Notes under the pieces: generated by a model
What the model saw: only the letters and a program-made list of their open reading frames with translations
Database searches by the model: none
What the model was told of the DNA's origin: nothing
Assembly: GCA_037134195.1 (NCBI GenBank)
Contig: JBAXMR010000008.1
Span: forward strand, 1,141 to 65,140
Length of the DNA stretch: 64,000 nucleotides
Source of the DNA: Paludibacter sp.
GTDB lineage: Bacteria; Bacteroidota; Bacteroidia; Bacteroidales; Paludibacteraceae
Direction: 5' to 3'
Shown here: in pieces, positions 477-59,602 of the stretch
Layout: each line of letters begins with the position of its first letter
How positions within the stretch are numbered: the first letter of the stretch is position 1
Made by a program: the position numbers and the translations under genes

Positions 477-668
477 CTATTCTTCGCCTAATTGCAATTT
501 TTGCACGTAAACCGCGTGAACTTTCTCTTCGCGTTTTACTACTGAAGGTTTGTCGAAACACTGACGACGACGTAATTCTTTTACAACGCCTGTTTTTTCA
601 AATTTACGTTTGAATTTTTTCAATGCTCTTTCAATGTTTTCGCCTTCTTTTACGGGTACTACGATCAT
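477..668 (-). CDS. rpsU: 30S ribosomal protein S21
   Basis: 63 aa, MIVVPVKEGENIERALKKFKRKFEKTGVVKELRRRQ.. is a typical S21 sequence. Confidence 0.95.
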   Translation of the reverse strand: MIVVPVKEGENIERALKKFKRKFEKTGVVKELRRRQCFDKPSVVKREEKVHAVYVQKLQLGEE

Positions 669-5355: not shown

Positions 5356-5542
5356 TAGAAATTTTAAAATTAATTTCGTCCCTACGGGACTTTGTATATA
5401 GGACTTGTTTATGTTTTTACCATAATTACAGCTCTACGAGGTTAAAAAAAGTGACGTAGTCACGAAAATATGGTAAAAGCATGAATATAAATAACCCTTA
5501 AAGTCCCGTAGGGACGACATATAATTAATGTGTCAAAGTAGA
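5341..5542. repeat. 202-bp nested inverted-repeat element (MITE-like or structured RNA)
   Basis: A perfect 17-bp outer IR, TCTACTTTGACACATTA (5341-5357), pairs with TAATGTGTCAAAGTAGA (5526-5542). A perfect 18-bp inner IR, TCGTCCCTACGGGACTTT (5376-5393), pairs with AAAGTCCCGTAGGGACGA (5500-5517). A central palindrome GTGACGTAGTCAC lies at 5451-5463. Confidence 0.6.
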
Positions 5543-5579
5543 ATTAGATTGCAGAATGATTAATTTACTTTTCAAGCCC

Positions 5580-5602
5580 CATTACTCAAAAATTGAGTAA
5601 TG
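5580..5602 (-). terminator. Candidate terminator hairpin downstream of 5652..9212
   Basis: A perfect 10-bp stem CATTACTCAA / TTGAGTAATG with a 3-nt loop sits about 50 nt past the stop codon. There is no clear U-tract. Confidence 0.4.
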
Positions 5603-5651
5603 AGACCTGAATTTTGTAAACTTAACAACAACTTTTCTTAGCTATAAAAAA

Positions 5652-8600
5652 TCAATTAATTATTATTTTTCTGATTATGCTCTTACCTTCATTTGTCAGT
5701 TTTACTAAATAAGCACCAACCGATAAATTGTTATTTTCCTGAATATTTGTTCCTGACAAATCTCTTGAAATTACTTTCTGGCCTACAGCATTGAATATTT
5801 CAAGCTTTGCTCTATTTACTGTACCATTCACAACAATCTGTCCATTACGGGTTGAAATCCAAACATTTCCATTATTTTCAGGATTAATTCCTGTTGTTGT
5901 TGAAGGAGCTTTGAAAGTCAGTGCGAAACGACTTGTATTAGCAGTTGTTATTTCTGAATAAAAATTATAAGCAGTAGTTGTCAAATAAGTAATTACCGGA
6001 TTCAGCGGATCAATATTATCTTTCAGTAAAATCTGTGTTCCTTCAGCAAAATTACTCATAAGAGAAGCGTTGATAGTAAAATCACCGGATTTTCCAGTTG
6101 TAAATCCAAGAGCTATTTCAGTATCGTAAGGTATGCTGTTCATAGTATTTATGGCAAGCTGTGAACCATCAACAACGGTAAATAACTCAGGTATATTTAC
6201 ATTGCCATTCGACATTTTACCGGAATCGTAAGCATCCAGATTATTAGTTGCTCCGGAATAAAACTTAATTATTGTTTCATCGCCTGTAATTCCATTGAAC
6301 ACATTCAAACCTAATAAACCATAGGTTTCGTTCTTTAAAGTAGGTGTTTTCAGTGGAGTGGTAGGCACAGTTCCAGTAATATCTGGCATTGTTACGGTTG
6401 TTGTATGCGAACGATTTGAATTAGACAAAGCGATGGACTGGTTGTTTAATTTTGTTCTCACCCAGAATCCCTGCATAGGCGGAATATATCCTGTTACCCG
6501 ACCGGTTAAGCTGGAATTGGTACCAAAACCGTCAGTAGAATTTACCGTTTCGCAATGGTAATAACCGGCTGCATCGCGGGTACGATACCATACCGTTGGC
6601 TCTATACCGGCTGAATTTGCACTGATGGATGGCAATACATTCAGATACGAAGGATATGGATTTCCAATCAGGTTAAATCCGTGTTTTGGATTAGCTGAAG
6701 TATAAGACAGACCGCTGATAGTTTGATCACCCGTATTTAAACCGGTACCGCTAAATGTAACCGTTGATGTTGCTACACTTGGTTTTACAATATAACCAGC
6801 TCCAAAAGCCATAGTTGTGGCTCCGCTTACCGTATTCCATACTGCGCCGGCTGCATATCCATTCGCACCGGTTGACTGATTTGTATCACTTTCGGGGTAG
6901 GAATAGAAAGTTAATGAACCTCCATCGACTCCTGGTAATGATGATGCACCTGATACCGGAGAACTCATATACCAGTTGCGGGATGAGCTAAGATATTGTT
7001 TTACAGTAGCTGAGGTTACTGAAGTTGTTCCTCCATAATCATTATAAGTTCCGGTACCATTTGTGCCATCACTGTTTATACTTATAGCAGAAGCTATTAA
7101 TGAGCTTGTATTCGTAACCTTACCACCACCTGCAATAGTAAGGCTGTTTATGTTCGTTGGTGCGTTTATTGTCAATAATGCAGCATTTCCTACTATTACA
7201 TCACTAACCGGTGTCAAGGTCAAAGAACCTATTGAAGTAGAAGATGAAACGTTGATATTATTTGCTGTTGCAGATGGTGTAACGGAACTTGAAGTTGTGC
7301 CCGAACCGGTTCCTCTGATATTCGTGGCAGTTGCAGTAAAGGTGTAGGCAGTTCCATTGGTTAAACCTATTACCTTAAGCGGACTTGTCGAACCTGTAGC
7401 AGTGAATCCACCCGGTGATGATGTGACAGTATAGGAAGTTATATCAGCACCACCATCACTAGCCGGAGCTGCAAAGGCTATAGATGCTTGCGCATTACCT
7501 GCGGTTGCCACTACTGATGTAGGTGCTCCCGGAACTGATGGATAATATTTTGCTGCTTCGTTGGTTGTTGTTGATTCATATAGCCAGCCTCTTGGCATAG
7601 AAGTACTGCTGAATGGTCCTGTTTTTGAAGTTTGAGAATAACCTAATACTAGATAATTGTTTACTGCCGGTGTGTATGAAGTATAATCTGCTGTAACTGT
7701 CAATGAGGCATTGGTTACATCAAGTTCTGTACACGAAATTTTATCGAAATCAGTTCCTGCAGTTGTTTTACCTTTGATTTGCATCAATACACTTCCATAA
7801 AGTGGGAATTTAGTACCGGCAGCCGATGGGGTTAACACGATTGTTCCAATTCCGCTCGTACCTCCGGTATAGTCGCCTGGCGAAAGTGTACTACCTGTAG
7901 CTGTTACCAAAGTGCTTGCTGCAAAGGTACAAGAACCATTGATGGTTGCACCATTGTTATTATTCAAAACAACCACTGAAGTCGCGGCAGTAGAACCACC
8001 TGAAACACCATAATTAAAGTTTATCACACCACCCGAATTGTTATTCAGTATTGGATAAGTGCTTGTTGTTCCTGATGTACCTGAACTCGTAATAGAACCT
8101 TTCGTTATGTTAATAGTTCCGGTATTTGTGAATGTCTGATTTGCAGCCTTAGTACTTAACTTTATAGCATTGGTGTAACCGTATAAATTCAATATTCCAC
8201 TATTTGTAAAAATATAGGGCATTGAAGAAGCTACATATATACCTAAAGCACTTGACACATCTTTTGAGTTAATAGTGGCAGTACCCGTATTTATAAACTT
8301 ACCATATCCAACAGTACTAGGAGCTGCTCCTCCAAAAACAGTGGGTTGTTCAAATCCACTTATAGATAGTGTCCCATTATTAGTAAATGAACAAAAAACA
8401 GATTCTGTGGTTTGCCACATATTAATAGCATGCAATGCAGTTCCTGATGTACTAGTACCAGCAGTGATATATATTGAGCCGTTATTAATTATTGAAGCTG
8501 AATTGGCCAAATAGAACGCATTTCGACCAGATCCAATATTAAGATTCAAGGTAGTACCGCTATTGATGGTTATTGTTGAGCCTGCAGTTGTTATATTAAA

Positions 8601-9212
8601 AGGAGTAAAGGCTAAAGAGCCTGTAGCATCTCCCATTGTGAAACCCGCTCCTCCAATCGTACCTGCCGCATTTTCCGCTGCTGTAAAGAAAGATGTAGAA
8701 GCTTTTCCAACTAAGCTGTTTATTCCATTAAAAGTTAAAGTATTACCAGTACCATTTATAGAAACACCATAATTTACTGTTGATGCATTTGCAGTAGTAA
8801 TGGACAATGTGCCTTGATTAACAAAAGTATTTGTACCAGCCAGATACATTGCACCAGTTGTAGCTCCAGCAGTATTTAGGCCGGGGGCAATTGTGAGCGT
8901 ACCATTGTTTGTTAAGCTCGCTCCAGCGCTAAATGAGATTTTTTCCACATTCACGGTAGTTCCAACTGCAATAACTACCGATTTGCCAGCATTAATTGTA
9001 ACAATATCAGCTGCAGTCGGAACTGCTGAACTAACTGATGCAGTGGTGCTACTTGTACTCCAGTTAGAAATAGTAGCCCAATCGGTATTGGTTGTACCAA
9101 AGAAGTAGAGCGGCGTTGCATAAGCTCCGGAAGAATAAACCAAGCCAATAAAAAGCAAGGCGATAAATTTATAAACGCTCCGATAATTGAAAGAAATTGA
9201 TTGATTTTTCAT
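5652..9212 (-). CDS. Giant T9SS cargo: beta-strand stalk module, Fn3, ~450-aa unknown domain, T9SS CTD (type B)
   Basis: 1186 aa with a signal peptide. The stalk (TDWATISNWS..NNGTLTI.. repeats, ..LSPGDYTGGTSGIGTIVL..GTDFDKISCTELDV..) is homologous to the N-termini of 13650..15830 and 9396..13424. The Fn3 reads APTSVVATAGNAQASIAFAAP..YTFTATATN. The CTD reads ..KLEIFNAVGQKV..GAYLVKLTNEGKSIIRKIIIN. Confidence 0.8.
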   Translation of the reverse strand: MKNQSISFNYRSVYKFIALLFIGLVYSSGAYATPLYFFGTTNTDWATISNWSTSSTTASVSSAVPTAADIVTINAGKSVVIAVGTTVNVEKISFSAGASLTNNGTLTIAPGLNTAGATTGAMYLAGTNTFVNQGTLSITTANASTVNYGVSINGTGNTLTFNGINSLVGKASTSFFTAAENAAGTIGGAGFTMGDATGSLAFTPFNITTAGSTITINSGTTLNLNIGSGRNAFYLANSASIINNGSIYITAGTSTSGTALHAINMWQTTESVFCSFTNNGTLSISGFEQPTVFGGAAPSTVGYGKFINTGTATINSKDVSSALGIYVASSMPYIFTNSGILNLYGYTNAIKLSTKAANQTFTNTGTINITKGSITSSGTSGTTSTYPILNNNSGGVINFNYGVSGGSTAATSVVVLNNNNGATINGSCTFAASTLVTATGSTLSPGDYTGGTSGIGTIVLTPSAAGTKFPLYGSVLMQIKGKTTAGTDFDKISCTELDVTNASLTVTADYTSYTPAVNNYLVLGYSQTSKTGPFSSTSMPRGWLYESTTTNEAAKYYPSVPGAPTSVVATAGNAQASIAFAAPASDGGADITSYTVTSSPGGFTATGSTSPLKVIGLTNGTAYTFTATATNIRGTGSGTTSSSVTPSATANNINVSSSTSIGSLTLTPVSDVIVGNAALLTINAPTNINSLTIAGGGKVTNTSSLIASAISINSDGTNGTGTYNDYGGTTSVTSATVKQYLSSSRNWYMSSPVSGASSLPGVDGGSLTFYSYPESDTNQSTGANGYAAGAVWNTVSGATTMAFGAGYIVKPSVATSTVTFSGTGLNTGDQTISGLSYTSANPKHGFNLIGNPYPSYLNVLPSISANSAGIEPTVWYRTRDAAGYYHCETVNSTDGFGTNSSLTGRVTGYIPPMQGFWVRTKLNNQSIALSNSNRSHTTTVTMPDITGTVPTTPLKTPTLKNETYGLLGLNVFNGITGDETIIKFYSGATNNLDAYDSGKMSNGNVNIPELFTVVDGSQLAINTMNSIPYDTEIALGFTTGKSGDFTINASLMSNFAEGTQILLKDNIDPLNPVITYLTTTAYNFYSEITTANTSRFALTFKAPSTTTGINPENNGNVWISTRNGQIVVNGTVNRAKLEIFNAVGQKVISRDLSGTNIQENNNLSVGAYLVKLTNEGKSIIRKIIIN

Positions 9213-9241
9213 GATTTAATTTAATTATGATTATTATGATG

Positions 9242-9307
9242 CAAAAGTATTTTGATTTAGAATTTAAGATAATCTCAAAAATCTCAAAAACATTCAAATT
9301 TGTAACA
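9242..9307 (-). promoter_or_regulatory. 66-bp conserved promoter module, copy 1 (upstream of 5652..9212)
   Basis: The minus strand reads TGTTACAAAT, N7, TTTTTGAG ATT TTTGAGATTAT, N19, TACTTTTG. The -7 box is TAnnTTTG at 9249-9242 and the ATG is at 9212. Confidence 0.65.
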
Positions 9308-9395
9308 TTATATTCGTTTTTTTATAAGAAAAACTAGACTTACTGGTTTTATCCATTAAGCCAGGCTTTAGTAAACAATCAAATTTTTGTTCAAC

Positions 9396-12300
9396 TTAAA
9401 TCACAATTTTACGGTTAAGTAATATTCCTTCAGTGCTAATCTGAATGATATAAACGCCATGAGGATAGTTATTTAATTCTATATTTGTTTGTTTTGTAAA
9501 AGCAGTCGTTTGTAAAAGCAGTCCATTTACATTAAAAAGTTGTAATTTAAGCAGTTTTGCTTCCTTGTATTCAACAGAAAGTGAATTTGAATTGAAATAA
9601 AATGTAAAATTATCATCCTTTAAATCAATTTTGTTGGTTACAACAGATTGCAATCCCGAAAGATTCGAAGTCCATACATCATCAGTATTTGTTATTCCAT
9701 AATTTTTGCCATGTTGTCTCACCATTGTCAAATCCGGAGTAAGCTGATTGTTGTAGTAACTGTATCCATTTATTGACGTTAACACAACATTCGGTTTTGG
9801 ACATCCCGTGATAATATTGTCGTGGATAGAAATGTTAGTAAATCCACCTGCAGCTGAAATAGCCTTTGATCCATTAAAAGAAATTACTGTCAATGGAGCG
9901 GCTTGACTTTGCCCCCAACTGCTTGCTTCAAACATACACTTTGAAATCAGATTATTACTGATTTCCACATTGCTGGAACAACCGGCTTCCATCCAATAGA
10001 ACTCGGGAGCTAAAACTATACCTGCTTCCATGCTTCCTCTTACATAATTATTTTTAATGGTACCATTCGATGCTTTTACCAATATGCCACGAGAACGGTT
10101 GTAACCCACTGTGTCGTTTTCTATTTTAAAGTTATTACCTGTTCGTGCCTTTGAGTAAATTAAATCGCCAATACTCAATCCTGTGTACCAGGCTGGTATG
10201 CTAATTCTAAATCCATATATAAAAGATGTTGGACTTGACATACCACCAGTATATAACGCGATACAATTGGAAATTTCAGTGGTAGTAGGTGCAGATGTAG
10301 TTAATGTCAATGCTTTGCTGTTTCCAATAATAGTGCCGTTATTATCTACCAATACAATACTGTCGCTATTTTGCACTTTAGGGGTAGTTGAACTTGACAG
10401 CAGATACAAATAACCGTTGGCCTGATCTACATTATAAACTGGATAAAAATTACCGTTCACCGCAATACAGTCATCACTGTTATACTCCACTCTGCAATTG
10501 GTTATAGTAGGACCAACAGTGGCGTGTTTACTATGAATTCCATCGGCATTTCCGGATCTTAATCTGGGCACTGATACATTCTGGTCATCGGTTTTTCGTG
10601 TCACTTTACAACGGTTGTAGGTACTGTTTTCGCAATCTGATTCATAAAAAGAGAAACAATTGGAGCCATACATAGTTACATTATCCATGATTAGATTTTT
10701 ACTGCCAGATATATATATGCCATGTGTTTCAGTGTTGACCGGTTTTACATCGAACACTGCATAATCACCCACTGCTTCACTGTAAGGTGAAGTAGCCGAT
10801 GTTTTTGTAATTGTAAGCACATCCGAAGATTGAATGTACGTAAAACCTGAGTAAATTGTCCAATAGTTTTCCTTTAACGTCAGGGTGTTTTTATCAAAGA
10901 GTTCCAGTTTATTGGTTGAAATATCAGTCAATGGATAACCGTTGCAAATTTTCACTGTCCAAGTAAGGTGATCGGATGAAACGGCTGTTATTATACCTTG
11001 CGTAAAGCAAAGCGGATCATAATCGACACTCAGATTGGACATCTTAAAATTAGTACAATTAATAACTCTGAATGCCAGCGACTGCTTGTCACAAATTATC
11101 TCCGAACCGTTTCCTTCCACCGTTACATTGCTCAATCCGCTGAATTGGTAAGCTCCCGAAGCCAAGGTAAGTGAATAAGATCCCTTTGGTATGTTTATTG
11201 AAGAACTTCCTGATTGAGCATCCAATACCGTTCTTAAATCGTTCAATGCAGGTGTTATTGCATTTGATGCTGCACTTGAACTACTTGTGCCGTTTTGATT
11301 TGTGGCTGTAACGGTAAACGTATAACTTGTACCATTGGTTAAACCATTAACCGTAATGGGACTGGTAGTACCTGTTGCAGTTATTCCACCCGGGTTGGAA
11401 GTAACTGTATAGCCTGTAATTGCACTAATTCCAGCATTACCGGGCGCAGTAAATGAAACGGTAGCTTTTTTATTCCACCCCACTGCTGTTCCTATTGTAG
11501 GTGCAAAAGGCAAAGAAGTATCGTATTTTATAGCCACATTGGTTGCTGATGAAGCATCTACAATCCAACCGTTGGCTATCGAGGCAGTTAGAAAAGAGCC
11601 AGTTTTAGAAACGGTTGAATATGTTAATGGTATATAATCCAAATTTGACGGAGTATAATTTACTGTTGCGCTTAATGTTGAGTTTGTAAGGTCTAATTCT
11701 GAACATTGTAATTGGTCATAATCCGTACCAGCAGTTGTTTTGTTGTTCACAAGCATATTCAAACTTCCTGCAAGTGGAAACTTTGTTCCTGTGGCTGAAG
11801 GTATTAAAACCATAATACCGATTCCACTGATTTTATTTACCGTATCGTAATCACCCGGCGACAGCGTACTTCCGGCATTTGTTGAAAGAGTTGAAGCAGG
11901 GAAAGTACACGAACCATTTATTGTTGCACCGCTATTGTTATTAATTGTTACTGCATTGGCAGCATTCGTTGTACTTGATGGTATGCCATAATTAAAGTTG
12001 ATTATTCCACCCGAATTATTATCAATGGTTTGATACGTGCTTGCAGTTCCTACCGTTCCACCACTGGTAATGTTTCCTTTTGTAATGTTTATCGTCCCTG
12101 TATTCGTAAATGACCCGCCATAGCTTTTTGCATTCAGCGAAATTGCTCTGTAGCTTACATTTATATTTAGCGTTCCGCTGTTGATAAAAACATTTGGTAG
12201 GTTGCTTAACGAAAATATCCCCAGCGATGAACCAGATGTTCCGGTGTAGTTGATGGTTGTAGTGCTGTTTACTTTGTTCTCAAATTTACAATATCCTGTT

Positions 12301-13424
12301 GAACCCGTGTTAGACCCACCAAATACGGTTGGTTGTTCAAATCCAGACATTAGGAATGTTCCGTTGTTGGTAAAAGTTGAGTTTAGACCAGCAGTAGTTT
12401 CCCATATTTGAAGTGCATGCAGACTTGTTCCGGTTGTAGTGGTATAGGTGTTGATAGTTCCATTGTTAGTTATCGAAGCACTGCTCGACAAATAAAAAGC
12501 ATTATTGGCATTAATATACGCTGACAAAGTAGTACCCGCAGAAATAATAATGGCAGCATTAGTAGATGTGGCGGTAACTAAACTATAATTAACCTGAGCA
12601 CCAGAGCTACCAATTGTAAACCCACTTCCGGAAATTGTAGTTGTAGAACTGCCGCTTGCCGAAATGACTGACTTGGAAGCTCCTGCAACAATATTGACAG
12701 TACCGTTAAATATCAAACTTGCTGTACCACCCGTACCGATTACATTATTGAATCCGGCACTTGTATTGAGTGTAAGTGTTCCTTCGTTATCGAAGTAGGC
12801 GGTGGTAGCTGATGAAAAGGCAATTGCATTGTCGCTGTTTTGGGTTACGACATTCAACGTTCCATTATTGGTAAGTTTTCCTGTTCCGGCAATTGTAATG
12901 CTATTCACCGAGATTGTTGAACCTACTGCAATGACTACCGTCTTGCCTGTTGGAATTGAAACTTTGTTATTGATACCAGGAAGAACGCCACCAGTCCAGT
13001 TCGAAGCTGTAGCCCAATTGGTACTTGTACTGCCAGACCAAGTGATTGTACTTATTGTTTTAGGAGTAATGCTGTTGGATGCTGTGCTTGTAAAATCGCC
13101 ACCACCATCGCCCACAGCCCGAACGGTAAAAGTGTAAGCCGTCCCAGAAGTCAAGCCGCTGACTGTTATTCCGGTAGCTGTTCCAGTAGCCGTTACATTT
13201 CCCGGACTAGATGTCACTGTATAGTTTATTGTACCGGTTCCGCTGTAAGTTGGTACAATAAAATTCACTTTTGCTGATGTAGAACTAGCTACCGAAGCCG
13301 AAACATAAGTAGGTGCATTGGAAATTACTATTAATCCAAAAGAACTGACTGAATAACATAAGCAGAAAAAAACAAGGATAAATGTTTTAGGAGCAAAGAA
13401 AATTTGAAATGTAGAAGTTTTCAT
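9396..13424 (-). CDS. Giant T9SS cargo fusion: Fn3, stalk module, Fn3, GH110-like beta-helix enzyme, T9SS CTD (type C)
   Basis: 1342 aa. The N-terminal Fn3 (..GTAYTFTVRAVG) precedes a stalk homologous to the type-B proteins. A second Fn3 reads ..GTSYTFTVTATNQNG. From about nt 11250 downward lies an enzyme module homologous to 2510..4447 (DYDPLCFTQG, NADGIHSK-x17-SDDCIAVNG, YNRSRGILVKASNG). The CTD reads ..LQLFNVNGLLL..GVYIIQISTEGILLNRKIVI. Confidence 0.8.
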   Translation of the reverse strand: MKTSTFQIFFAPKTFILVFFCLCYSVSSFGLIVISNAPTYVSASVASSTSAKVNFIVPTYSGTGTINYTVTSSPGNVTATGTATGITVSGLTSGTAYTFTVRAVGDGGGDFTSTASNSITPKTISTITWSGSTSTNWATASNWTGGVLPGINNKVSIPTGKTVVIAVGSTISVNSITIAGTGKLTNNGTLNVVTQNSDNAIAFSSATTAYFDNEGTLTLNTSAGFNNVIGTGGTASLIFNGTVNIVAGASKSVISASGSSTTTISGSGFTIGSSGAQVNYSLVTATSTNAAIIISAGTTLSAYINANNAFYLSSSASITNNGTINTYTTTTGTSLHALQIWETTAGLNSTFTNNGTFLMSGFEQPTVFGGSNTGSTGYCKFENKVNSTTTINYTGTSGSSLGIFSLSNLPNVFINSGTLNINVSYRAISLNAKSYGGSFTNTGTINITKGNITSGGTVGTASTYQTIDNNSGGIINFNYGIPSSTTNAANAVTINNNSGATINGSCTFPASTLSTNAGSTLSPGDYDTVNKISGIGIMVLIPSATGTKFPLAGSLNMLVNNKTTAGTDYDQLQCSELDLTNSTLSATVNYTPSNLDYIPLTYSTVSKTGSFLTASIANGWIVDASSATNVAIKYDTSLPFAPTIGTAVGWNKKATVSFTAPGNAGISAITGYTVTSNPGGITATGTTSPITVNGLTNGTSYTFTVTATNQNGTSSSSAASNAITPALNDLRTVLDAQSGSSSINIPKGSYSLTLASGAYQFSGLSNVTVEGNGSEIICDKQSLAFRVINCTNFKMSNLSVDYDPLCFTQGIITAVSSDHLTWTVKICNGYPLTDISTNKLELFDKNTLTLKENYWTIYSGFTYIQSSDVLTITKTSATSPYSEAVGDYAVFDVKPVNTETHGIYISGSKNLIMDNVTMYGSNCFSFYESDCENSTYNRCKVTRKTDDQNVSVPRLRSGNADGIHSKHATVGPTITNCRVEYNSDDCIAVNGNFYPVYNVDQANGYLYLLSSSTTPKVQNSDSIVLVDNNGTIIGNSKALTLTTSAPTTTEISNCIALYTGGMSSPTSFIYGFRISIPAWYTGLSIGDLIYSKARTGNNFKIENDTVGYNRSRGILVKASNGTIKNNYVRGSMEAGIVLAPEFYWMEAGCSSNVEISNNLISKCMFEASSWGQSQAAPLTVISFNGSKAISAAGGFTNISIHDNIITGCPKPNVVLTSINGYSYYNNQLTPDLTMVRQHGKNYGITNTDDVWTSNLSGLQSVVTNKIDLKDDNFTFYFNSNSLSVEYKEAKLLKLQLFNVNGLLLQTTAFTKQTNIELNNYPHGVYIIQISTEGILLNRKIVI

Positions 13425-13451
13425 TTGATTGAATTATTTTAAAATTTATTG

Positions 13452-13517
13452 CAAAGGTATTTCTATATGCTTTATTATATAATCTCAAAACGCTCAAATA
13501 ACTTCATGTTTGTAACA
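13452..13517 (-). promoter_or_regulatory. 66-bp conserved promoter module, copy 2 (upstream of 9396..13424)
   Basis: The minus strand reads TGTTACAAAC, N7, TATTTGAG CGT TTTGAGATTAT, N19, TACCTTTG. Spacing is identical to copy 1. Confidence 0.65.
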
Positions 13518-13583
13518 GAAAGCTATTTGAAAATTGAAATTGATAGTTGAAATCCTGCCAAACCGTACAAAATGTAACATTTT

Positions 13584-13622
13584 TGCAAAAAAAATAACGG
13601 ATAGTGAATTTCACTACCCGTT
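13584..13622 (-). terminator. Rho-independent terminator after 13650..15830
   Basis: The minus strand has a 13-bp stem AACGGGTAGTGAA / TTCACTATCCGTT with one G-T pair. It is followed by ATTTTTTTTGC. Confidence 0.7.
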
Positions 13623-13649
13623 ACGAGCCGCTATCTGTTATTTATTCAA

Positions 13650-15830
13650 TTAGTTAACTAACACTTTCTGAACTTTTATACCTTGAGCCGTTTCGAGTTT
13701 TATTAAATATATTCCTTTGCTTTTCATTTCAATGTTTCGATTCGATGTCTTTTCGGAAAGAACCAAACCTCCAACACTATTGAATACATTTACCATGCCA
13801 ATTGCTCCATGTAAATTGAGTGTACGTCCTTCAACTGTAATCATTATTTTATCAGCACTTTGATTTACAATAGCAGTATTTACACTTGGTGTAACTGAGT
13901 TAGAAGCAGCACTTGCCACACTTGTTCCTCTGATGTTTGTCGCAGTTACAGTGAAAGTATAAGCAGTTTCATTAGTTAGCCCTGTTACTACAATAGGACT
14001 TGCTGTGCCTGTAGCAGTTATACCATCGTTGGATGTAACTGTATATAATGTAATATCAGCACCACCATCACTCGCTGGTGCGGAAAAAGCCACAGAAGCC
14101 TGAGCATTGCCTGTAGTTGCTACTACCGATGTAGCCATACTTGGTACAGATGGATAATATTTTGCTGCTTCGTTGGTAGTGGTTGATTCATATAGCCAAC
14201 CTCTTGGCATAGAAGTACTGCTAAATGGACCGGTTTTGGAAGTTCCTGAATAAATTAGTACCAGATAATCGTTTACAGCAGGGGTATATGAAGTGTAATC
14301 CGCTGTAACGGTCAATGTAGCGTTGGTTACATCAAGTTCGGTACACGAAATTTTATCGAAATCTGTTCCAGGGGTTGTTTTTCCTTTAATTTGCATCAAT
14401 ACGCTACCAGAAAGAGGAAATTTAGTTCCTGCAACAGATGGTTTTAAAACGATTGTTCCAATACCGCTTACGCCAGCTGTATAATCTCCGGGTGAAAGTG
14501 TGCTTCCCACTGCTGTAACCAACGTATATTGAGGAAAAGTACATGAGCCATTGATAGTTGCACCGCTATTGTTGTTTATGATCACTCTATCTGTCGCTAC
14601 AGAAGTTCCTGCAGAAACACCATAGTTAAAGTTAATAACACCTCCAGAATTATTGTCGATGGCTTGATAAGTAGTTGAAGTGCCTAATGTACCACCACAC
14701 TGAATACTCCCTTTTGTTATGTTGATAGTTCCTGTATTGGTAAATGAACCACCATAGGTTTTTGCAGATAAAGCAATTGCTCTATAGCTAGCATTTAAAT
14801 TCATCGTACCACTATTGATAAAGATATTCGGCAAATTTCCTGCGGAGGATATTCCAATTGTACCTGATGATGTACCTGATGATATACCCGGATAGGTAGA
14901 AGTTACAATTCCTGTTGATTTATTTTCGAATTTACTATAAGAAGTGCCACCAGATCCACTAAACGAAGTGGGTTGTTCAAAACCCGACATCAATAATGTA
15001 CCATAATTTGTAAAAGTAGCAACATATCCATTAGCGGATGTTTGCCAAACACTTATAGCACGAGGATTTGTTCCTGTATCTTTAGTATAGATATTTAATG
15101 TTCCGTTATTGATTATTGAAACTGAGCTAGCCAAATAAAAACCAACCTTCCCTGTTGAACTACCAATATATAAATTTATAGTAGTATTGGTATCAATGGT
15201 AATAGTAGCCCCAGTAGAGGTTATAGAAAATGGTATAAATGTCGCTCCGATAGTTGAACTTCCAATTGTAAACCCAGTTCCACTTATTGTTGTAGAAGAG
15301 CTACCACCTGCAGCAAATACATTATTACTTCCTGCTTTAGCAGCTAAGTTATTTGTTCCATTAAAAGTTAGTGTATTGCCTGTTCCATTAAGACTTATGG
15401 CATTAGAAACTGAAGTTTGATTGGCTGAAGTAATTGTCAATGTACCTTCATTATCAAAAGTATTTGTACCTGAGATGGTAAGTGCTGAACCAGTTGTAGC
15501 ACCTGCTGTATTTAATCCAGGGGCAATTGTCAGTGTTCCATTGTTGGTCAAACTTGCACCTGCATTTAGTGTTATTTTTTCCACGCTCACAGTAGTTCCA
15601 TTTGCAATTACTACAGATTTACTCGTGGCAATAACTACCACATCGGCCGAAGTTGGAACTGTTCCTAAATCCCAATTTGTGGCTGTTGCCCAATCTGTAT
15701 CCGTTGTGCCATTAAACGTAACAGTTACTGCATAAGCTTCCACAGTAAAGAACATACAACAAAGAAATAATGCAAATTGCCTAATTGAAGACGATAAGCA
15801 AGAAGTTAAAGTAGAATTTTGATTGTTCAT
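13650..15830 (-). CDS. T9SS cargo: stalk module, Fn3, T9SS CTD (type B-prime, no extra domain)
   Basis: 726 aa. The stalk and Fn3 are close to 5652..9212. One shared block is identical or nearly so: GPFSSTSMPRGWLYESTTTNEAAKYYPSVP. The CTD reads ..MVNVFNSVGGLV..GIYLIKLETAQGIKVQKVLVN. Confidence 0.8.
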   Translation of the reverse strand: MNNQNSTLTSCLSSSIRQFALFLCCMFFTVEAYAVTVTFNGTTDTDWATATNWDLGTVPTSADVVVIATSKSVVIANGTTVSVEKITLNAGASLTNNGTLTIAPGLNTAGATTGSALTISGTNTFDNEGTLTITSANQTSVSNAISLNGTGNTLTFNGTNNLAAKAGSNNVFAAGGSSSTTISGTGFTIGSSTIGATFIPFSITSTGATITIDTNTTINLYIGSSTGKVGFYLASSVSIINNGTLNIYTKDTGTNPRAISVWQTSANGYVATFTNYGTLLMSGFEQPTSFSGSGGTSYSKFENKSTGIVTSTYPGISSGTSSGTIGISSAGNLPNIFINSGTMNLNASYRAIALSAKTYGGSFTNTGTINITKGSIQCGGTLGTSTTYQAIDNNSGGVINFNYGVSAGTSVATDRVIINNNSGATINGSCTFPQYTLVTAVGSTLSPGDYTAGVSGIGTIVLKPSVAGTKFPLSGSVLMQIKGKTTPGTDFDKISCTELDVTNATLTVTADYTSYTPAVNDYLVLIYSGTSKTGPFSSTSMPRGWLYESTTTNEAAKYYPSVPSMATSVVATTGNAQASVAFSAPASDGGADITLYTVTSNDGITATGTASPIVVTGLTNETAYTFTVTATNIRGTSVASAASNSVTPSVNTAIVNQSADKIMITVEGRTLNLHGAIGMVNVFNSVGGLVLSEKTSNRNIEMKSKGIYLIKLETAQGIKVQKVLVN

Positions 15831-15872
15831 AAAATTGAATTTTAGAAGATGAATAATAGATTTATTTAGATA

Positions 15873-17816
15873 TTATGGTAAAATTATTTTTCTTGAATAC
15901 GTTGATTGATTGTATTTTAAAGAAACTATATAGACTCCTTTATTAAATTGAGAAAGGTTTGTTTTATCAGTGTTTGAAATCTTTTTGTTGAGTAACATTC
16001 TGCCAGGCAGGTCAAAAATAAAGAGTTGAGCAGTTTCCCCATCTTCCATACCAATTATTGATATATTGCCATTCTTATCAATTGAAATTAAGTTTTCAGG
16101 ATTTAATTTAGTTTCGTGAACATCGGTATTTATAGACGTAAAATTTACAACATTTATTTTCCAGAAGTCTTTCGTATTTAACACTCCCAAACTACTTCCA
16201 TGTGTACGAATCATTGTCAGGTCAGTCGTGGTGGTGTTATTGTAATAATTTACTCCATCAATAGAAGTAAGCACCACACATGGGCGAGGGCAACCATCGA
16301 TTACATTATCGTGAATATTGTAATTTTTCAGGCCACCAGCGGGTGAAAAACCACCTTGTGGAGCTGAAGATACTACCACTAATGCACCAGCCTGTGATTG
16401 TCCGGTCATGCTGGCATTATACATACAATTCCGAATGGTATTGTTGCTAATTTCTATATTGCTGGGACATCCTGCTTCCATCCAATAAAACTCGGGTGCA
16501 ACGGCAATTCCACTCATGGCACTACCTACAACGGTATTTCCAGAAATAATTCCATTCGATGATTTTATTAAAATTGCCCTTGAACGGTTATGACCTACCT
16601 GATTGTTGATGACTTTAAATCCGGCACCACTTCTGTTCATAGAGTAGAAAATATCCGAAATCGCCATTCCGGCAATCCAATTATCGATGGTTACTACAAA
16701 GCCGTTTGCAAACTGATTCCTCTGATTACCAAGCTTGGCATAACAGGTTGTTAACTGAGCTGTAGTTGGTGCTGTTAATGCTGCTGAAATTGATTTTGCC
16801 ACTCCTTTCCCCCGTATTGAACCATCATTATTTACACAAACGATGCTGTCGCCCACACTTATTTTAAAATCACTCAGATTGCTTGATGAACAAAGCATAT
16901 AAATACTTTTACTTGTGGCATTTATGTCATATACCGGATAAAAATTTCCATTTACAGCGATACAATCATCTCCATTATATTCAACTTTACATTCTTCGAT
17001 AATGGGACCAATTTTAGCAAATTTGCTATGAATTCCATCGGCACTACCGGCACGTAAACGCTGAATGGTATATTTAGAATCGTATGGTTTTCTGGTCACA
17101 CCGCAACGGTAGTAATGCGTTTTTTCACAGTCGTATTCGTAAAATGAAAAACAGTTTGAATCATACATGGTAATACTATCCAACGACATATTCTTGCAAG
17201 CATTCAGTATAATGCCGTGTGCGGGTATATTTGTACCGGTAGCAGCCACATCCAATACCACGTAATCTCCTAGTTGAACCACACTGTTTTTGTCGGACAT
17301 GCCGGTTAGTCGAAACGTTCTTGTACCAGTTTTAGAAACCGTTATACCATAAATATCACCAAAATTCTTTACTAATTCTAAAGTTGATTGCCCGAATACC
17401 TGAACTTTAGTCCCTTCTAAGCTGTCAACCGGATACCCATCATGAATGGTAATATCCCATGTTTTTTTATCTGATGATATGGCATTAATGGTTCCTTGGG
17501 TGCAACATGGAGGATCGTATTCGATATAAAAATTATTGAACACTACATTTTCACAACTTGTAAATGAAAAACATTGTTTTTGCCTGTTACATATAATTGT
17601 AGAACCATTACCGTTAATGGTCACATTTTTTTTATTGATAAACGAATATGCGCCGCTGGATATTAAATCAAGCGTGTAAGTACCTTTAGGAACATCAATT
17701 ACCGAGTTGCTGCTCTGATTATTCAGAACAGTGCGTAAATCGGGATATGTCGCTCCATATAAAATAGAAACTACAAGTACATTTAGAAACAGTAAAATTG
17801 TTTTTTTGATTTTCAT
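15873..17816 (-). CDS. Secreted GH110-like beta-helix enzyme with T9SS CTD (copy A-prime)
   Basis: 647 aa, near-duplicate of 2510..4447 with the same motifs. It lies 42 bp upstream of 13650..15830 on the same strand, so the two are probably co-transcribed. Confidence 0.8.
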   Translation of the reverse strand: MKIKKTILLFLNVLVVSILYGATYPDLRTVLNNQSSNSVIDVPKGTYTLDLISSGAYSFINKKNVTINGNGSTIICNRQKQCFSFTSCENVVFNNFYIEYDPPCCTQGTINAISSDKKTWDITIHDGYPVDSLEGTKVQVFGQSTLELVKNFGDIYGITVSKTGTRTFRLTGMSDKNSVVQLGDYVVLDVAATGTNIPAHGIILNACKNMSLDSITMYDSNCFSFYEYDCEKTHYYRCGVTRKPYDSKYTIQRLRAGSADGIHSKFAKIGPIIEECKVEYNGDDCIAVNGNFYPVYDINATSKSIYMLCSSSNLSDFKISVGDSIVCVNNDGSIRGKGVAKSISAALTAPTTAQLTTCYAKLGNQRNQFANGFVVTIDNWIAGMAISDIFYSMNRSGAGFKVINNQVGHNRSRAILIKSSNGIISGNTVVGSAMSGIAVAPEFYWMEAGCPSNIEISNNTIRNCMYNASMTGQSQAGALVVVSSAPQGGFSPAGGLKNYNIHDNVIDGCPRPCVVLTSIDGVNYYNNTTTTDLTMIRTHGSSLGVLNTKDFWKINVVNFTSINTDVHETKLNPENLISIDKNGNISIIGMEDGETAQLFIFDLPGRMLLNKKISNTDKTNLSQFNKGVYIVSLKYNQSTYSRKIILP

Positions 17817-17854
17817 TTTGAATTTAGATTATAGGATTTTTCCTAAAATAGTTT

Positions 17855-17901
17855 CAATATCCTTTATTGCCAATACATTGGAAGGCAATAGAAGGATATT
17901 G
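17855..17901 (-). terminator. Candidate terminator (nested hairpin) after 17922..19706
   Basis: An outer stem CAATATCCTT (17855-17864) pairs with AAGGATATTG (17892-17901). An inner stem ATTGCC (17866-17871) pairs with GGCAAT (17884-17889). Confidence 0.5.
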
Positions 17902-17921
17902 ATGTTGCTTTATTCTGTCAA

Positions 17922-19706
17922 TTATTTCTGCATTTTTTGGATAATTACCGTACCATCGTAATTAACTACCTGTACGATGTATAAACCTGTTTGCAAATTT
18001 GAAGTGTTTAATTTTGAGACATTAGCCTGAACATACTGTCTAACTCCTGCCAAGTCAAATACAGAAATGCTCTTGACTAAATTCGGCAAATAAATCATGT
18101 CAGTAAACGGATTTGGATAAGCAAAAGTTGAATTTTTCAGTATTTCGTTAACTGCAGTAGGGCCATCATATTCATAAGCACCTGCATCTTTGCTTGCTCC
18201 TATTTTGGCTATTCCTCTAATATCCAATGCTGGAACCAGATTCAACCCGTTTAACAAAAATTCAGCTTTTCCAAATTCGATGGCCAACGAACCTTGGTTT
18301 AATTTGAGATAGGGAACTCCTGTTGCAGGTACAGTTAAGACGGAATCCAGTTTTACGATGTTATTTAATTTACCTACTGAATCTGTGGTAAGATGAACAG
18401 CAGTACTAAGCGAACCTCCAAACCCATCAAAAACACTTCCGGTAATGTTCAAAGATTTATAAAGTTGTGTTGGTTTTGTTAAGTTAACAACTAACCCGTA
18501 ACCCCAGTATTTTAGTAAAGTTGGATCCCACACTCTATCCTGTACAATATTATTGATAAAGCTAAAATCAACGCCTAGGTCATTGAAAAACAAACTAGAT
18601 TTTGCAGCAGTAGGATTGCTGGGTCCATTTTTAAAAAATGTGTTGTTGATAAAACTGATAGTTCCGTTTAATCCATTTTCACTCCCGCCTGTAATTATAA
18701 AAGCTGTACCATGTGTAGCATTGCAATAGTTTGCATAAAAAGTATTATTTACAAACTGTAAATTCACTTTACCTGCAGTAGTTGCAAAACTACCTACTTT
18801 GTCAATCAAAATTGCACCACCAGATCCATACGCATAATTTTTACTAAAAGTGGAGTTGGTTATTTTCAGTTTTGCATCACAACCTGCATAAAGTCTGAAA
18901 GCGATTGCACCGCCTGCAGGTGATTTTGTATTCAAAGTCATATCATCGTTGGATGTATTTGAATCAAAATAGCATTTATTGATGGTTACATTGGCAGTTT
19001 GAGATTCGACTTTCAATGCACCACCAAATTTATAGTCGTGCGTTCCATCTTGTGTACTGTTTGCTTTAAATGTACAACTTTCAAAATTAGCAATACCTGT
19101 TCCCTGAACACATACTGCTGCGCCATGTGACGAAATACAATTTTGGAATAAAACATTTGTACAATTTAATGTACCAGTTGAGTAAATTGCACCGCCTCCA
19201 CGTAAAGCCAAGTTTGCGTTTTCTACATTTACATTCTCAAGTGTAAGTGTTGCAGTAGAACTTACATTAAACATACCTCCCCAATAGTCTGTTTTACCAG
19301 TTGCAAATGCATATTGACTATTCCGAATGGTCATATTCTTTATGGAAAGACTTCCTGTTCCGGTAATAGCAAAAAATTGAGGAGTCTCTGAACCTCTGGC
19401 AATATCATCGGCAGTTAAACCTTCAATAATTACATTGTCTTTGGTTGATCCGGCAGTTCCCTGAAGCGTTACATTGACAGTTACGGTTGCCTTTGCTAAA
19501 ACTGCATGGGTAGTGGCTGCTAAAACTACGGTGCAACCATCTGTCCATTTAGTAGCATTGAGTGACATCCATGGAGATGATGAACTGGTTCCTTCATTTG
19601 CATCATTTGCATTAGTAGAATTTGGGTCAACATAAAATGTTGTTTGAGATTGTATTGACAACACGGGTATCAATACCATTAACAGAAGGTAAAATTTTTG
19701 TTTCAT
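17922..19706 (-). CDS. Pmp-like (GGAI / FxxN repeat) beta-helix surface protein with T9SS CTD
   Basis: 594 aa with a signal peptide. Repeated GGA(I/L) units occur (GGAIYSTG, GGALKVES, GGAIAFRL, GGAILID). FxxN units also recur (FKAN, FDSN, FSKN, FVNN, FYAN, FINN, FFKN). The CTD reads AYPNPFTDMIYL..ISVFDLAGV..GLYIVQVVNYDGTVIIQKMQK. Confidence 0.75.
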   Translation of the reverse strand: MKQKFYLLLMVLIPVLSIQSQTTFYVDPNSTNANDANEGTSSSSPWMSLNATKWTDGCTVVLAATTHAVLAKATVTVNVTLQGTAGSTKDNVIIEGLTADDIARGSETPQFFAITGTGSLSIKNMTIRNSQYAFATGKTDYWGGMFNVSSTATLTLENVNVENANLALRGGGAIYSTGTLNCTNVLFQNCISSHGAAVCVQGTGIANFESCTFKANSTQDGTHDYKFGGALKVESQTANVTINKCYFDSNTSNDDMTLNTKSPAGGAIAFRLYAGCDAKLKITNSTFSKNYAYGSGGAILIDKVGSFATTAGKVNLQFVNNTFYANYCNATHGTAFIITGGSENGLNGTISFINNTFFKNGPSNPTAAKSSLFFNDLGVDFSFINNIVQDRVWDPTLLKYWGYGLVVNLTKPTQLYKSLNITGSVFDGFGGSLSTAVHLTTDSVGKLNNIVKLDSVLTVPATGVPYLKLNQGSLAIEFGKAEFLLNGLNLVPALDIRGIAKIGASKDAGAYEYDGPTAVNEILKNSTFAYPNPFTDMIYLPNLVKSISVFDLAGVRQYVQANVSKLNTSNLQTGLYIVQVVNYDGTVIIQKMQK

Positions 19707-19772
19707 ACTGAATTAGAATTAATTATTAATATTATTTGATAGTTCAAAAAAACATTATCTATTTTGACACTG

Positions 19773-19838
19773 CAAAGATATTTTAATGTACTTATTTTAA
19801 TAATCTCAGAATTCCCAAAAAACATATCATTTGTAACA
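19773..19838 (-). promoter_or_regulatory. 66-bp conserved promoter module, copy 3 (upstream of 17922..19706)
   Basis: The minus strand reads TGTTACAAAT, N7, TTTTTGGG AAT TCTGAGATTAT, N19, TATCTTTG. Spacing is identical to copies 1 and 2. Confidence 0.65.
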
Positions 19839-19989
19839 TTACTGGATTATATGATACTCCCTTTTCTTAGGACAGTTTTAGCAGCAAGTTAAGATATTTA
19901 TTTTTGCTGCAAGTTTGGTTTTGCTCGGACAAAACGGGAAATAACTTTTTTGGCCGCCCCTGCGAGCCATGAAAAAAGTTATTCTCGTT

Positions 19990-20850
19990 TTAGGCCGCTA
20001 ATTGATAAACATCTTTGGGTGTTTTATATTCTAAGGATTGATGCAATCTTTCGTTGTTGTAAAAACTAAAATAGTCATTCAATCCTTTCCACAAAGATAA
20101 TCCATTTTCGTATACATTCAAATACACGTTTTCGTACTTTACGCTTCGCCATAATCTTTCTATAAAGATATTGTCCAACGCTCGTCCTTTGCCATCCATT
20201 GATATTTTTATCTCGTTTGATTTCAACTCTTTGATAAATACTTCACTTGTAAATTGGCTGCCCTGATCAGTATTGAAAATCTCTGGTTTTCCATGTAGTT
20301 CTATCGCTTGTTTTAGTACTTCTGTACACCATTCAGCACTCATGGTATTGGATAACGACCAATGAATAACATATCGACTGTGTAAGTCGATAATTGCCGT
20401 GAGATACATAAATCCCTTTTCCATTGGAATGTACGTGATATCCATTGCCCAAACCTGATTGCGTCTTATAATTTTCAATCCTTTTAAAAGATATGGATAC
20501 TTGTAATGAGTTTTGTTGCTGATAGTTGTTCTGGGTTCACGATAAATAGTTTGCCAGTTTACTTTTTTCATCAATCGTCTCACGCGCTTTACACTTACGG
20601 GGTATCCTGCAACTTGCAGCAAAGCAGTCAATCGCAATACACCATAAAATGGAGTGCTGAAATACTGTTCGTCCAACCAGCGCATGATAGCTAAATTTTG
20701 TTCCGATTCGCCAACCGGAACATAATAGAAACTACTTCTGTGTAATGAAAGAAGATTACATTGAACCGTTATACTCAATTGCTTATGATTAGGTTCGATT
20801 AAATCTCTTCGTTCAGTTCTACCTCTTAGAGCAACTTTTTTTTTAGAAAA
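19990..20850 (-). CDS. IS3 transposase orfB (rve integrase core), expressed by -1 frameshift from orfA
   Basis: The track ORF 19990..20778 starts at an internal TTG. The same frame stays open upstream to 20850 and crosses the A9 run (T9 on the plus strand, 20836-20844). Sequence includes ..WAMDITYIPM..YLTAIIDLHSRY..FNTDQGSQFTS.. Confidence 0.85.
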   Translation of the reverse strand, partial: FSKKKVALRGRTERRDLIEPNHKQLSITVQCNLLSLHRSSFYYVPVGESEQNLAIMRWLDEQYFSTPFYGVLRLTALLQVAGYPVSVKRVRRLMKKVNWQTIYREPRTTISNKTHYKYPYLLKGLKIIRRNQVWAMDITYIPMEKGFMYLTAIIDLHSRYVIHWSLSNTMSAEWCTEVLKQAIELHGKPEIFNTDQGSQFTSEVFIKELKSNEIKISMDGKGRALDNIFIERLWRSVKYENVYLNVYENGLSLWKGLNDYFSFYNNERLHQSLEYKTPKDVYQLAA

Positions 20851-21104
20851 TCATTTTCGACTTTCAATTGACCAATTTGAGCATATAAAACCTGAGTCTG
20901 ATTTGCAATCTCCTTATCATCGGCCACTTCATTTGAAAAAACATTGCTGAAATTTTTCAATGCCTGGCTGCGCCACATAGAAATCTGGGTCGGTTGAAGT
21001 TCATACTTTTTGGCTAAACTTTCTAATGTTTCGCGCTCCTTTAATGATTCTAAAACCACTTTCGCTTTAAATTCTTTACTGAATTTTCTCCTTGATGTTG
21101 ACAT
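20826..21104 (-). CDS. IS3 transposase orfA (HTH)
   Basis: 92 aa, MSTSRRKFSKEFKAKVVLESL..., ending ..FLKKKLL* on the slippery TTTCTAAAAAAAAAG. Confidence 0.85.
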   Translation of the reverse strand: MSTSRRKFSKEFKAKVVLESLKERETLESLAKKYELQPTQISMWRSQALKNFSNVFSNEVADDKEIANQTQVLYAQIGQLKVENDFLKKKLL

Positions 21105-21379
21105 AAAATTTTTGGTTTAAAGATAATACAATTATATCTTAGCTTTATGTCCAATTTTTGGGGAGTATCATATTATTCCTCAAAAATAACTAAGATATTT
21201 AAACGAACAGTATTTTTAAGATTGATATTCCTTACCAATTAGAACAATAATATTACAATTTGTATCAAAACTATCAGAATCTCTCATAATTAACAATCTT
21301 AGATTTGAAAAACTCAAAATAATCACTACTTTAGTCGCATAATTCAAAAAAATATATATAATAATAAAATGAAACACGC

Positions 21380-46253: not shown

Positions 46254-46299
46254 CAAAATTAGAGCAAACAGCGTGATTCTTACCGTTTGTTTTGTAACA
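46254..46299 (-). promoter_or_regulatory. Putative susC operon promoter with the TGTTACAAA palindrome 28 nt from the -7 box
   Basis: The minus strand reads TGTTACAAAA (46299-46290), N28, TAATTTTG (46261-46254). About 125 nt of leader separates it from the ATG at 46128. Confidence 0.5.
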
Positions 46300-46412: not shown

Positions 46413-46478
46413 TGTTACAAAGTATATGTTATCTGTTATATTTGGACATAATTATTAATTTCCCAATTTATAATTTTG
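46413..46478 (+). promoter_or_regulatory. 66-bp promoter module, copy 4 (upstream of the GH110-like gene 46560..48332)
   Basis: TGTTACAAAG (46413-46422), N48, TAATTTTG (46471-46478). TATCTG and TTTG sub-blocks sit at the same offsets as the tandem 9-mers of copies 1-3. Confidence 0.55.
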
Positions 46479-59455: not shown

Positions 59456-59602
59456 AATAGTGACAAGTTAGAGATTAGCTTATGACCTCCAACCCCCAAA
59501 TGGGGACTTAAGACGCAGTATTTTTAAAATTAAAACATATTTTAATGCAATTGAAATAAATCAATACGAATCAAAATCCCTTTTTTGGGGTTTGGGGGCA
59601 AA

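Follow-up and report, generated by a model that had tools for sequence, protein, structure and literature searches.

In a 64,000-nucleotide stretch of DNA from a Paludibacter-like bacterium (the window, which lies on contig CAZGSJ010000001.1 of the metagenome-assembled genome GCA_964528335.1 and whose closest named relatives are Paludibacter sp. metagenome-assembled genomes), three promoters ahead of genes for type IX secretion system (T9SS) cargo proteins share one gapless module of 66 nt. Here we propose that each module is a promoter dependent on a hybrid two-component system (HTCS), a promoter type already described, and we regard this prediction as likely. Like known HTCS promoters, the modules combine direct repeats of about 21 bp, an operator placed at the -33 region, a co-localised HTCS gene and a motif that is common to the promoters of a polysaccharide utilization locus (PUL). 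The first-pass annotation of the window had presented an "exactly 66-bp architecture" with an implied novelty; the architecture matches published HTCS operators (PMC3878776, PMC13292587) and, to judge from that match, is the ordinary geometry of HTCS-controlled promoters. No new regulatory principle is revealed, and only a cargo-specific block, YGRGATTAT, falls outside the known design. What the analysis offers is a concrete candidate operator for an uncultured Paludibacter-like bacterium (TGTTACAAA, N12, TGRGA, with distances to the -7 box of 58 and 37 nt) and a predicted regulon in which one glycan sensor is linked to a PUL (GH110-like, GH2, GH27, GH88-PL8 and sulfatase genes) together with a battery of T9SS-secreted beta-helix proteins.

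The 66-nt module and its conservation

The three copies, all on the minus strand, align without gaps and read as they had been given (Table 1), and in all three the distance from the initial 10-mer to the TAnnTTTG box is 48 nt, for a total of 66 nt. The pattern as first written, with N7 after the 10-mer, sums to 65 nt and has zero matches. With the correct spacer, N8, its first 39 nt match exactly three times (9307-9269, 13517-13479 and 19838-19800), and the number of chance matches expected from 100 dinucleotide shuffles is 0.00, even at 3 mismatches. The TTGT and ACAA palindrome arms described in the first-pass annotation are not present, because the base ahead of TGTTACAAA is A, C and A in copies 1 to 3, and the self-complementary part is limited to the 7 bp of TGT-T-ACA. 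Its tandem 9-mer is perfect in copy 1 (TGAGATTTT/TGAGATTAT) and breaks down in the other two, where the first unit is TGAGCGTTT (copy 2) or TGGGAATTC (copy 3). Both elements are better read in another way: TGTTACAAA not as a palindromic operator but as the distal of two half-sites that are repeated directly with a period of 21 bp, and the first 9-mer as the degenerate proximal half-site, 21 bp downstream of the distal one.

In generic Bacteroidota housekeeping promoters a TTG stands 19-21 nt upstream of TAnnTTTG. The rpsU gene of the same window (477-668, minus strand) has this arrangement, with TTG, 19 nt and TATCTTTG, just as had been noticed, and the modules lack it. At 19 nt upstream of the module -7 box there is ATTAT instead of TTG, and the nearest TTTG is 26 nt away. 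Lacking a normal -33 element, the modules look activator-dependent. From the -7 box to the start codon there are 29 nt (5652-9212), 27 nt (9396-13424) and 66 nt (17922-19706). An extra TGTTACA (TGTTACATTTTGTAC) lies at 13579-13573 on the minus strand, 62 nt upstream of module 2 and just past a terminator-like hairpin; it is kept in the related locus L051 (14179) and is out of 21-bp phase with module 2.

We fetched and inspected the contigs that encode homologs of the 17922-19706 protein at 32-89% identity. The module recurs at the same 66-nt spacing in L051 and L052 (89% identity), as three copies before the same three transcription units. It is also present in L063 (86%) and in L053, L054 and L058 (51-53%). 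A more diverged form occurs in L055 and L056 (35%), where TGTTACATTT is followed by TGATACC at position 22 and the 66-nt spacing is kept. Eleven distinct copies, from the window, L051, L053, L054, L055, L058 and L063, were compared. There is no indel in any of them, and TGTTACA (positions 1-7), TG (22-23) and TAnnTTTG (59-66) are invariant in all eleven, with the full TGTTACAAA in ten. Relative entropy averages 1.7-1.8 bits over the blocks and 0.5-0.7 over the spacers, and positions 10-21 and 40-56 are essentially random. Since the blocks are kept while the spacers have diverged, among cargo proteins that are 35-89% identical, mere copying by descent is ruled out and the module is under selection; the three promoters appear, as had been supposed, to share a functional cis-regulatory element.

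Two further explanations of the shared sequence bear on the same comparison, and we find both scarcely credible. One is that the modules are a remnant of recent duplication or gene conversion without regulatory meaning. Two of the three downstream genes are indeed paralogous (the products of g5652, g9396 and also g13650 share their N-terminal region in BLASTP), and the island carries insertion sequence (IS) elements. The third gene, however, is unrelated: its Pmp-like product (17922-19706) has no BLASTP similarity to the other five cargo proteins, in agreement with the earlier reading. The blocks are kept and the spacers saturated down to 35% protein identity, and the same half-sites stand in non-homologous PUL promoters. 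The ortholog comparison already contradicts this explanation. The other is that TGTTACA is the -35 element of an extracytoplasmic function (ECF) sigma factor; no conserved -10-like element follows it at 16-17 nt, positions 10-21 being variable, and no ECF sigma or anti-sigma gene is adjacent.

Other candidates were also tried. A palindromic operator of the CRP/FNR kind or another dimeric HTH site, for which inverted-repeat symmetry of at least 14 bp shared by the copies would be expected, was rejected, there being no conserved partner arm in positions 10-21 and TGT-T-ACA being the only self-complementary part, and a sigma-54 promoter was rejected because copies 1-3 have no GG 10 nt upstream of TTGC. 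An origin as a miniature inverted-repeat transposable element or other mobile element was likewise set aside, in view of the lack of flanking inverted repeats and the block-wise conservation. A sigma-70 consensus scan of 5400-20000 found 47 matches against 52.8 expected, with no enrichment, as expected in Bacteroidota.

Table 1. Positions of the modules and of neighbouring features in the window; promoter, operator and regulatory roles are predicted.
Feature	Coordinates	Strand	Details
Module 1, promoter of cargo gene 5652-9212	9242..9307 (copy 9307-9242)	minus	distal half-site TGTTACAAA 9307-9299; proximal half-site TGAGATTTT 9286-9278; third block TGAGATTAT 9277-9269; -7 box TACTTTTG 9249-9242; full sequence TGTTACAAATTTGAATGTTTTTGAGATTTTTGAGATTATCTTAAATTCTAAATCAAAATACTTTTG
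Module 2, promoter of cargo gene 9396-13424	13452..13517 (copy 13517-13452)	minus	distal half-site TGTTACAAA 13517-13509; proximal half-site TGAGCGTTT 13496-13488; third block TGAGATTAT 13487-13479; -7 box TACCTTTG 13459-13452; full sequence TGTTACAAACATGAAGTTATTTGAGCGTTTTGAGATTATATAATAAAGCATATAGAAATACCTTTG
Module 3, promoter of probable operon 17922-19706 / 15873-17816 / 13650-15830	19773..19838 (copy 19838-19773)	minus	distal half-site TGTTACAAA 19838-19830; proximal half-site TGGGAATTC 19817-19809; third block TGAGATTAT 19808-19800; -7 box TATCTTTG 19780-19773; full sequence TGTTACAAATGATATGTTTTTTGGGAATTCTGAGATTATTAAAATAAGTACATTAAAATATCTTTG
Promoter of GH110-like (GLAA-B barrel) PUL gene 46560-48332	46413..46478	plus	TGTTACA 46413-46419, N14, TGTTATA 46434-46440; -7 box TAATTTTG 46471-46478; same 58/37-nt registers as cargo modules
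Promoter of susC 42916-46128	46254..46299	minus	single half-site TGTTACAAAA 46299-46290; -7 box TAATTTTG 46261-46254
HTCS gene, 1340 aa	21380..25402	plus	divergent, upstream of cargo genes; proposed regulator
Extra phased half-sites, HTCS side of the IS element	21181..21267	minus	TGATACAAAT 21267-21258; TGTTCTA 21246-21240; TATTTTTG 21188-21181
Cargo genes, putatively regulated	5652..19706	minus	five proteins, four of five with T9SS C-terminal sorting domain
Intrinsic-terminator-like hairpin	13594..13624	minus	14 pairs and T-run; closes upstream operon just ahead of module 2
IS3-family element, about 1.3 kb	19846-21176		orfA (HTH_Tnp_1), orfB (rve, 19990-20778)

Phased half-sites and the adjacent HTCS

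The half-sites recur at a fixed period. Over 212 kb of this lineage, pairs of TG[AT]TA[CT]A occur nine times at exactly 21 bp and twice at 42 bp, whereas in block-shuffled sequence the number of pairs at 21 bp averages 0.14 and never exceeds 2, and no other spacing from 8 to 70 bp occurs more than 2 times. The cargo modules carry TGTTACA at position 1 and, in the ten closer copies, TGRGA at position 22, with TGATACC there in L055. Direct repeats with exactly this 21-bp distance are also found elsewhere in these loci: TGTTACA-N14-TGTTACA stands upstream of a further cargo gene at -2588 in L054, and TGATACA-N14-TGTTACA lies further upstream in the HTCS-cargo intergenic region of L053 and L054. 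The distance to the promoter is fixed as well, in that the first T of a half-site falls 79, 58 or 37 nt before the TA of TAnnTTTG in the PUL promoters of four genomes. Of these registers the cargo modules use two, with TGTTACA at 58 and TGRGAnn at 37.

The motif does not mark T9SS-cargo promoters specifically, since the same half-sites at nearly the same registers occur at two PUL promoters of the window, 46413(+) and 46299(-), and in orthologous PULs. At the second of these, the susC promoter, TGTTACAAAA is in the proximal register and is conserved in L071. Orthologous PUL promoters fetched through SusC homologs hold three phased half-sites in L069, three in L070 and two in L071. Nor is the motif a generic promoter feature within the window: across both strands, a perfect half-site at these registers accompanies 5 of the 116 TAnnTTTG boxes, which are those of the three cargo and two PUL promoters, and it is absent from the other 111. 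In L070, a stand-alone ORF (open reading frame) of 116 aa with an AraC-type HTH_18 domain (7363-7713) sits directly upstream of the phased PUL half-sites; it could be what is left of an HTCS C-terminus, or else a DNA-binding domain that has become detached.

The HTCS beside the cargo genes contains Reg_prop, Y_Y_Y, HisKA, HATPase_c, Response_reg and AraC-type HTH_18 domains, with a SHIP latch motif at residues 1168-1171. Its orthologs are divergent from and adjoin the module cluster in L051, L052, L053, L054 and L055, and also in L056, where the gene is cut by the contig end; in L058 the HTCS is on the same contig as the module, moved downstream beside an ISL3 transposase gene. An HTCS is thus found at every module-bearing locus whose fetched contig shows the upstream flank. 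Identity among the orthologs is 47-79% over the whole protein and 61-88% within the AraC domain, where the recognition helices are almost the same. Neither the L059 homolog, with no HTCS in view, nor L057, a 32% relative with a more distant HTCS, has a module. The adjacent HTCS, which had been named before as a candidate, is the best-supported predicted regulator.

Another protein might read TGTTACA instead, such as a global carbohydrate regulator, a SusR-like protein or the pair of PAS-LuxR proteins at 58685-60376 that the first-pass annotation also proposed. The tie between HTCS and motif is a prediction from sequence, SusR-like regulators are also predicted to act on long-spaced direct repeats (PMC3878776), and TGTTACA-N14-TGAGACA precedes GH3 genes and GH8-like/esterase genes in other Bacteroidales, with no HTCS visible in the fetched flanks. 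We nonetheless hold this to be very improbable. No regulator but the HTCS is syntenic with the motif: six of the fetched loci have it directly alongside, and a seventh carries it on the same contig. The TGnnACA(AA) form and the register equal those of predicted Bacteroides HTCS sites. The absence of the motif from the window's other -7 boxes also counts against a different reader. The genes of the PAS-LuxR candidates lie about 39 kb away, on the far side of housekeeping genes (topoisomerase, NAD synthase and MscS), and are present in none of the related loci.

The closest published counterparts are the operators predicted for 16 HTCSs of B. thetaiotaomicron, in all of which two conserved sites form a direct repeat with a distance of about 21 bp (RegPrecise; Ravcheev et al. 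2013, PMC3878776). In the printed alignments the predicted sites lie 19-25 nt upstream of TAnnTTTG boxes (PMC3878776, Additional file 2), and several half-sites have the form TGnnACA(AA), as in BT4675 (TGCACAAAT...TGAGACAAAA), BT1763 (TGCAACA...TGAAACA) and the B. cellulosilyticus ortholog of BT1763, BACCELL_05510 (TGTTACAAAT...TGAAACA) (PMC3878776). On the printed sequences of PMC3878776 we counted the distance between each ACA core and the G of the -7 box. The distal and proximal values are 61 and 40 nt in BT1763 and BACCELL_05510, 62 and 41 nt in BT4114 and BT4116, and 63 and 42 nt in BT4675. The window promoter at 46413 gives 61 and 40 nt, and in cargo module 1 the distal core is at 61 nt and the proximal half-site has no ACA. 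The window geometry therefore equals that of BT1763, BT4114, BT4116 and BT4675 within 0-2 nt. The comparison shows an HTCS promoter geometry that is nearly fixed across Bacteroidales, B. thetaiotaomicron BT1763 included, the distances between ACA cores and -7 G being about 61 and 40 nt. Such a constraint could make the prediction of regulons in metagenomes sharper.

HTCS_Fru (BT1754) acting on BT1763 resembles the window system in the 21-bp direct repeat, the TGnnACA(AA) half-site, the 61/40 cores, an operator that abuts the -33 region of a TAnnTTTG promoter, and a regulator gene beside its targets. The window differs from the Bacteroides operators in its Paludibacter-like lineage and different HTCS ortholog group, in that most targets are T9SS-secreted proteins and not susC/D operons, and in its degenerate proximal half-site, after which comes a conserved YGRGATTAT block that does not appear in the Bacteroides sites. 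BT4124, the HTCS of PUL75, gave DNase footprints on tandem half-sites 21-22 bp apart; each AraC domain was modelled as a MarA-like fold whose two recognition helices enter neighbouring major grooves, and a C/SHIP latch motif was described in the HTCS receiver domain (2026 study, PMC13292587). The window HTCS is alike in the tandem spacing, the AraC/MarA-like domain and the SHIP-type latch (residue 1168), whereas BT4124 has AACAAAnAnTAC-like half-sites and behaves as a repressor.

The conservation, the 21-bp phasing, the fixed register, the synteny and the specificity within the window are shown by these comparisons; what we infer is binding by the window HTCS, activation rather than repression, and the position of the transcription start, which would fall 5-8 nt downstream of the TAnnTTTG boxes. 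When a glycan is sensed, an HTCS dimer held by its kinase domains would set two AraC domains on the DNA, at tandem half-sites whose 21-bp distance is two helical turns and places them on the same face. The distal half-site, TGTTACAAA at module positions 1-9, would lie at about -71 to -63, and the degenerate proximal TGRGAnn, at positions 22-28, at about -50 to -44. The proximal site abuts a promoter with a good Bacteroidota -7 box and no -33 TTG, and since that element is missing, the proximal domain probably supplies the contact to RNA polymerase, which the activated regulator would recruit in a class II-like arrangement of the AraC/XylS style. At class II AraC/XylS promoters (AraC at araBAD, XylS at Pm, RhaS) the sites are direct repeats, the proximal one overlapping or abutting a poor -35. 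AraC, XylS and RhaS are, however, soluble one-component proteins that act on sigma-70 -35/-10 promoters, whereas the window domain forms the C-terminal end of a protein that fuses a membrane sensor kinase to a response regulator, and its promoters are of the Bacteroidota -33/-7 type. The same HTCS would also drive the neighbouring PUL through the same half-sites at nearly the same registers, and one glycan would then call up both uptake (SusC/D and periplasmic enzymes) and T9SS-secreted beta-helix/GH110-like enzymes. The regulon would consist of the PUL operons and three transcription units of T9SS-secreted enzymes, a combination that makes functional sense because GH110-type domains occur in both the PUL and the cargo sets.

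Several observations weigh against this proposal. The proximal half-site TGRGAnn is weak and shares with TGTTACA just TG and, usually, an A at position 5. The susC promoter offers a single clear half-site, whose distance to the TA of the -7 box is 38 nt instead of 37, and 21 nt upstream of that half-site we found only TCTTTTG/TCTTATT, an unconvincing distal partner. Activation, which we argue from the lack of a -33 element in the modules, is not guaranteed, because BT4124, one studied HTCS, is a repressor. The regulon may extend beyond the neighbourhood of the HTCS, the specificity count being that of a 64-kb window. Finally, YGRGATTAT, the best-conserved of the downstream blocks, is separated from the distal site by 30 bp instead of 21 bp and has no counterpart in the PUL promoters, and for these two reasons a simple model of two half-sites leaves it unexplained.

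The YGRGATTAT block of the cargo promoters

Positions 29-39 of the module have the consensus tttGAGATTAT, conserved in 10 of the 11 cargo modules at 1.33 bits per position; in L055 (35% identity) AGTTATCATAT takes the place of this block. Its core, YGRGATTAT (31-39), takes the place of a -33 element, with 19 nt between its end and the -7 box. The block could be a second-groove contact of the proximal HTCS monomer, or it could be a compensating or alternative proximal site, as the register in BT2818 and the strong half-site without the block in L055 would allow.

A refinement that is compatible with HTCS control divides the module between two factors, with the HTCS on the TGTTACA/TGRGA pair and a cargo-specific factor, or a contact of sigma region 4, on YGRGATTAT (-43 to -33), in which case control of the secreted enzymes would differ from that of the PUL core. 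We judge this unlikely. It would account for a block that is conserved in the cargo modules, sits exactly at the -33 place and is absent from promoters with two strong half-sites (window 46413, L054 -2588 and L069-L071). On the other hand, no candidate second regulator is syntenic, and a MarA-like domain touches two adjacent major grooves, so that positions 31-39 could belong to the proximal monomer. The register of the block, 28 nt ahead of the -7 box, is also that of the proximal HTCS half-site in BT2818, and L055 has a strong proximal half-site (TGATACC) and an unconserved block, which fits a compensatory role for the same protein. That YGRGATTAT is a separate control element, either the site of a second factor coupling T9SS-secreted enzymes to secretion capacity or part of a three-site HTCS operator, seems to us distinctly unlikely. 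Were the three-site operator true, the secreted enzymes would have a different induction threshold from the uptake genes.

Surroundings of the modules

T9SS sorting domains are found in the products of 5652-9212, 9396-13424, 15873-17816 and 17922-19706, and the domain search of 13650-15830 gave an fn3 match and no Por_Secre_tail match. The cargo proteins also contain fn3 and beta-helix domains, and part of the 9396-13424 protein resembles GH110A structures; a PDB sequence search with the Pmp-like protein gave no match. The genes 15873-17816 and 13650-15830 follow 17922-19706 after short gaps and have no module of their own. Another T9SS cargo gene on the minus strand, 2510-4447, is 86% identical to 15873-17816 and is preceded by repeated TATTTACTTTGC boxes instead of a module; it is apparently a duplicated copy outside the regulon. 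Beyond the HTCS, the large PUL at 25467-50961 holds two SusC/D pairs, DUF5013/PKD, sulfatase and beta-helix proteins, GH88-PL8, GH27 and GH2, and a gene with GLAA-B barrels.

The IS3-family element has terminal inverted repeats ATTATATGATACTCCC / GGGAGTATCATATTAT at 19846-19861 and 21161-21176. It has inserted 8-14 nt upstream of module 3, which is intact, and divides the intergenic region between HTCS and cargo genes in two; in L051, the 89% relative, the element is missing and the intergenic region measures 419 bp. Other transposase genes are present around these loci, DUF4372/DDE_Tnp_1 at 1053-1739 of the window and ISL3 at 4413-5252 of L058, next to the relocated HTCS, and the HTCS-cargo region appears to be a hot spot of IS activity.

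On the HTCS side of the IS3 element, which now separates it from module 3, a further set of phased half-sites is led by TGATACAAAT; TGTTCTA starts 21 nt after it, and its TGATACA is conserved in L051, L053, L054 and L055. In these relatives the element is at 7773-7860 (L051), 7895-7922 (L053), 6749-6776 (L054) and about 7854 (L055). Across the window and these loci the second half-site 21 nt downstream is TGTTCTA, TGTTTCA or TGTTACA; behind it, the window and L051 have a TATTTTTG box at the 79/58 registers. The element may be an extra upstream operator, a second promoter or a site of HTCS autoregulation.

A scan of a genome collection (without source species) for TGTTACAAA-N21-TGAGATTAT was discarded, as its 48 matches are in scattered phyla, several in coding sequence, and all are due to chance; the inner TTTGRG and a correctly spaced -7 box are both missing from every one of them. 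A metagenome scan with a relaxed module pattern returned 9 loci, of which L063 is the one true ortholog and seven fall in two promoter families from other Bacteroidales. These families, A and B, are on higher-GC Bacteroidales contigs and have TGTTACA-N14-TGAGACA-T[GC]AGAG...TAnnTTTG at the same register. Family A (L060, L064, L067, L068) precedes a GH3 gene, and family B (L062, L065, L066) precedes GH8-like, carboxylesterase and glucuronoyl-esterase-like genes. The likeness is suggestive only, because the search pattern forced most of the shared positions; the two families are probably operators of related HTCS-type regulators for xylan-type substrates.

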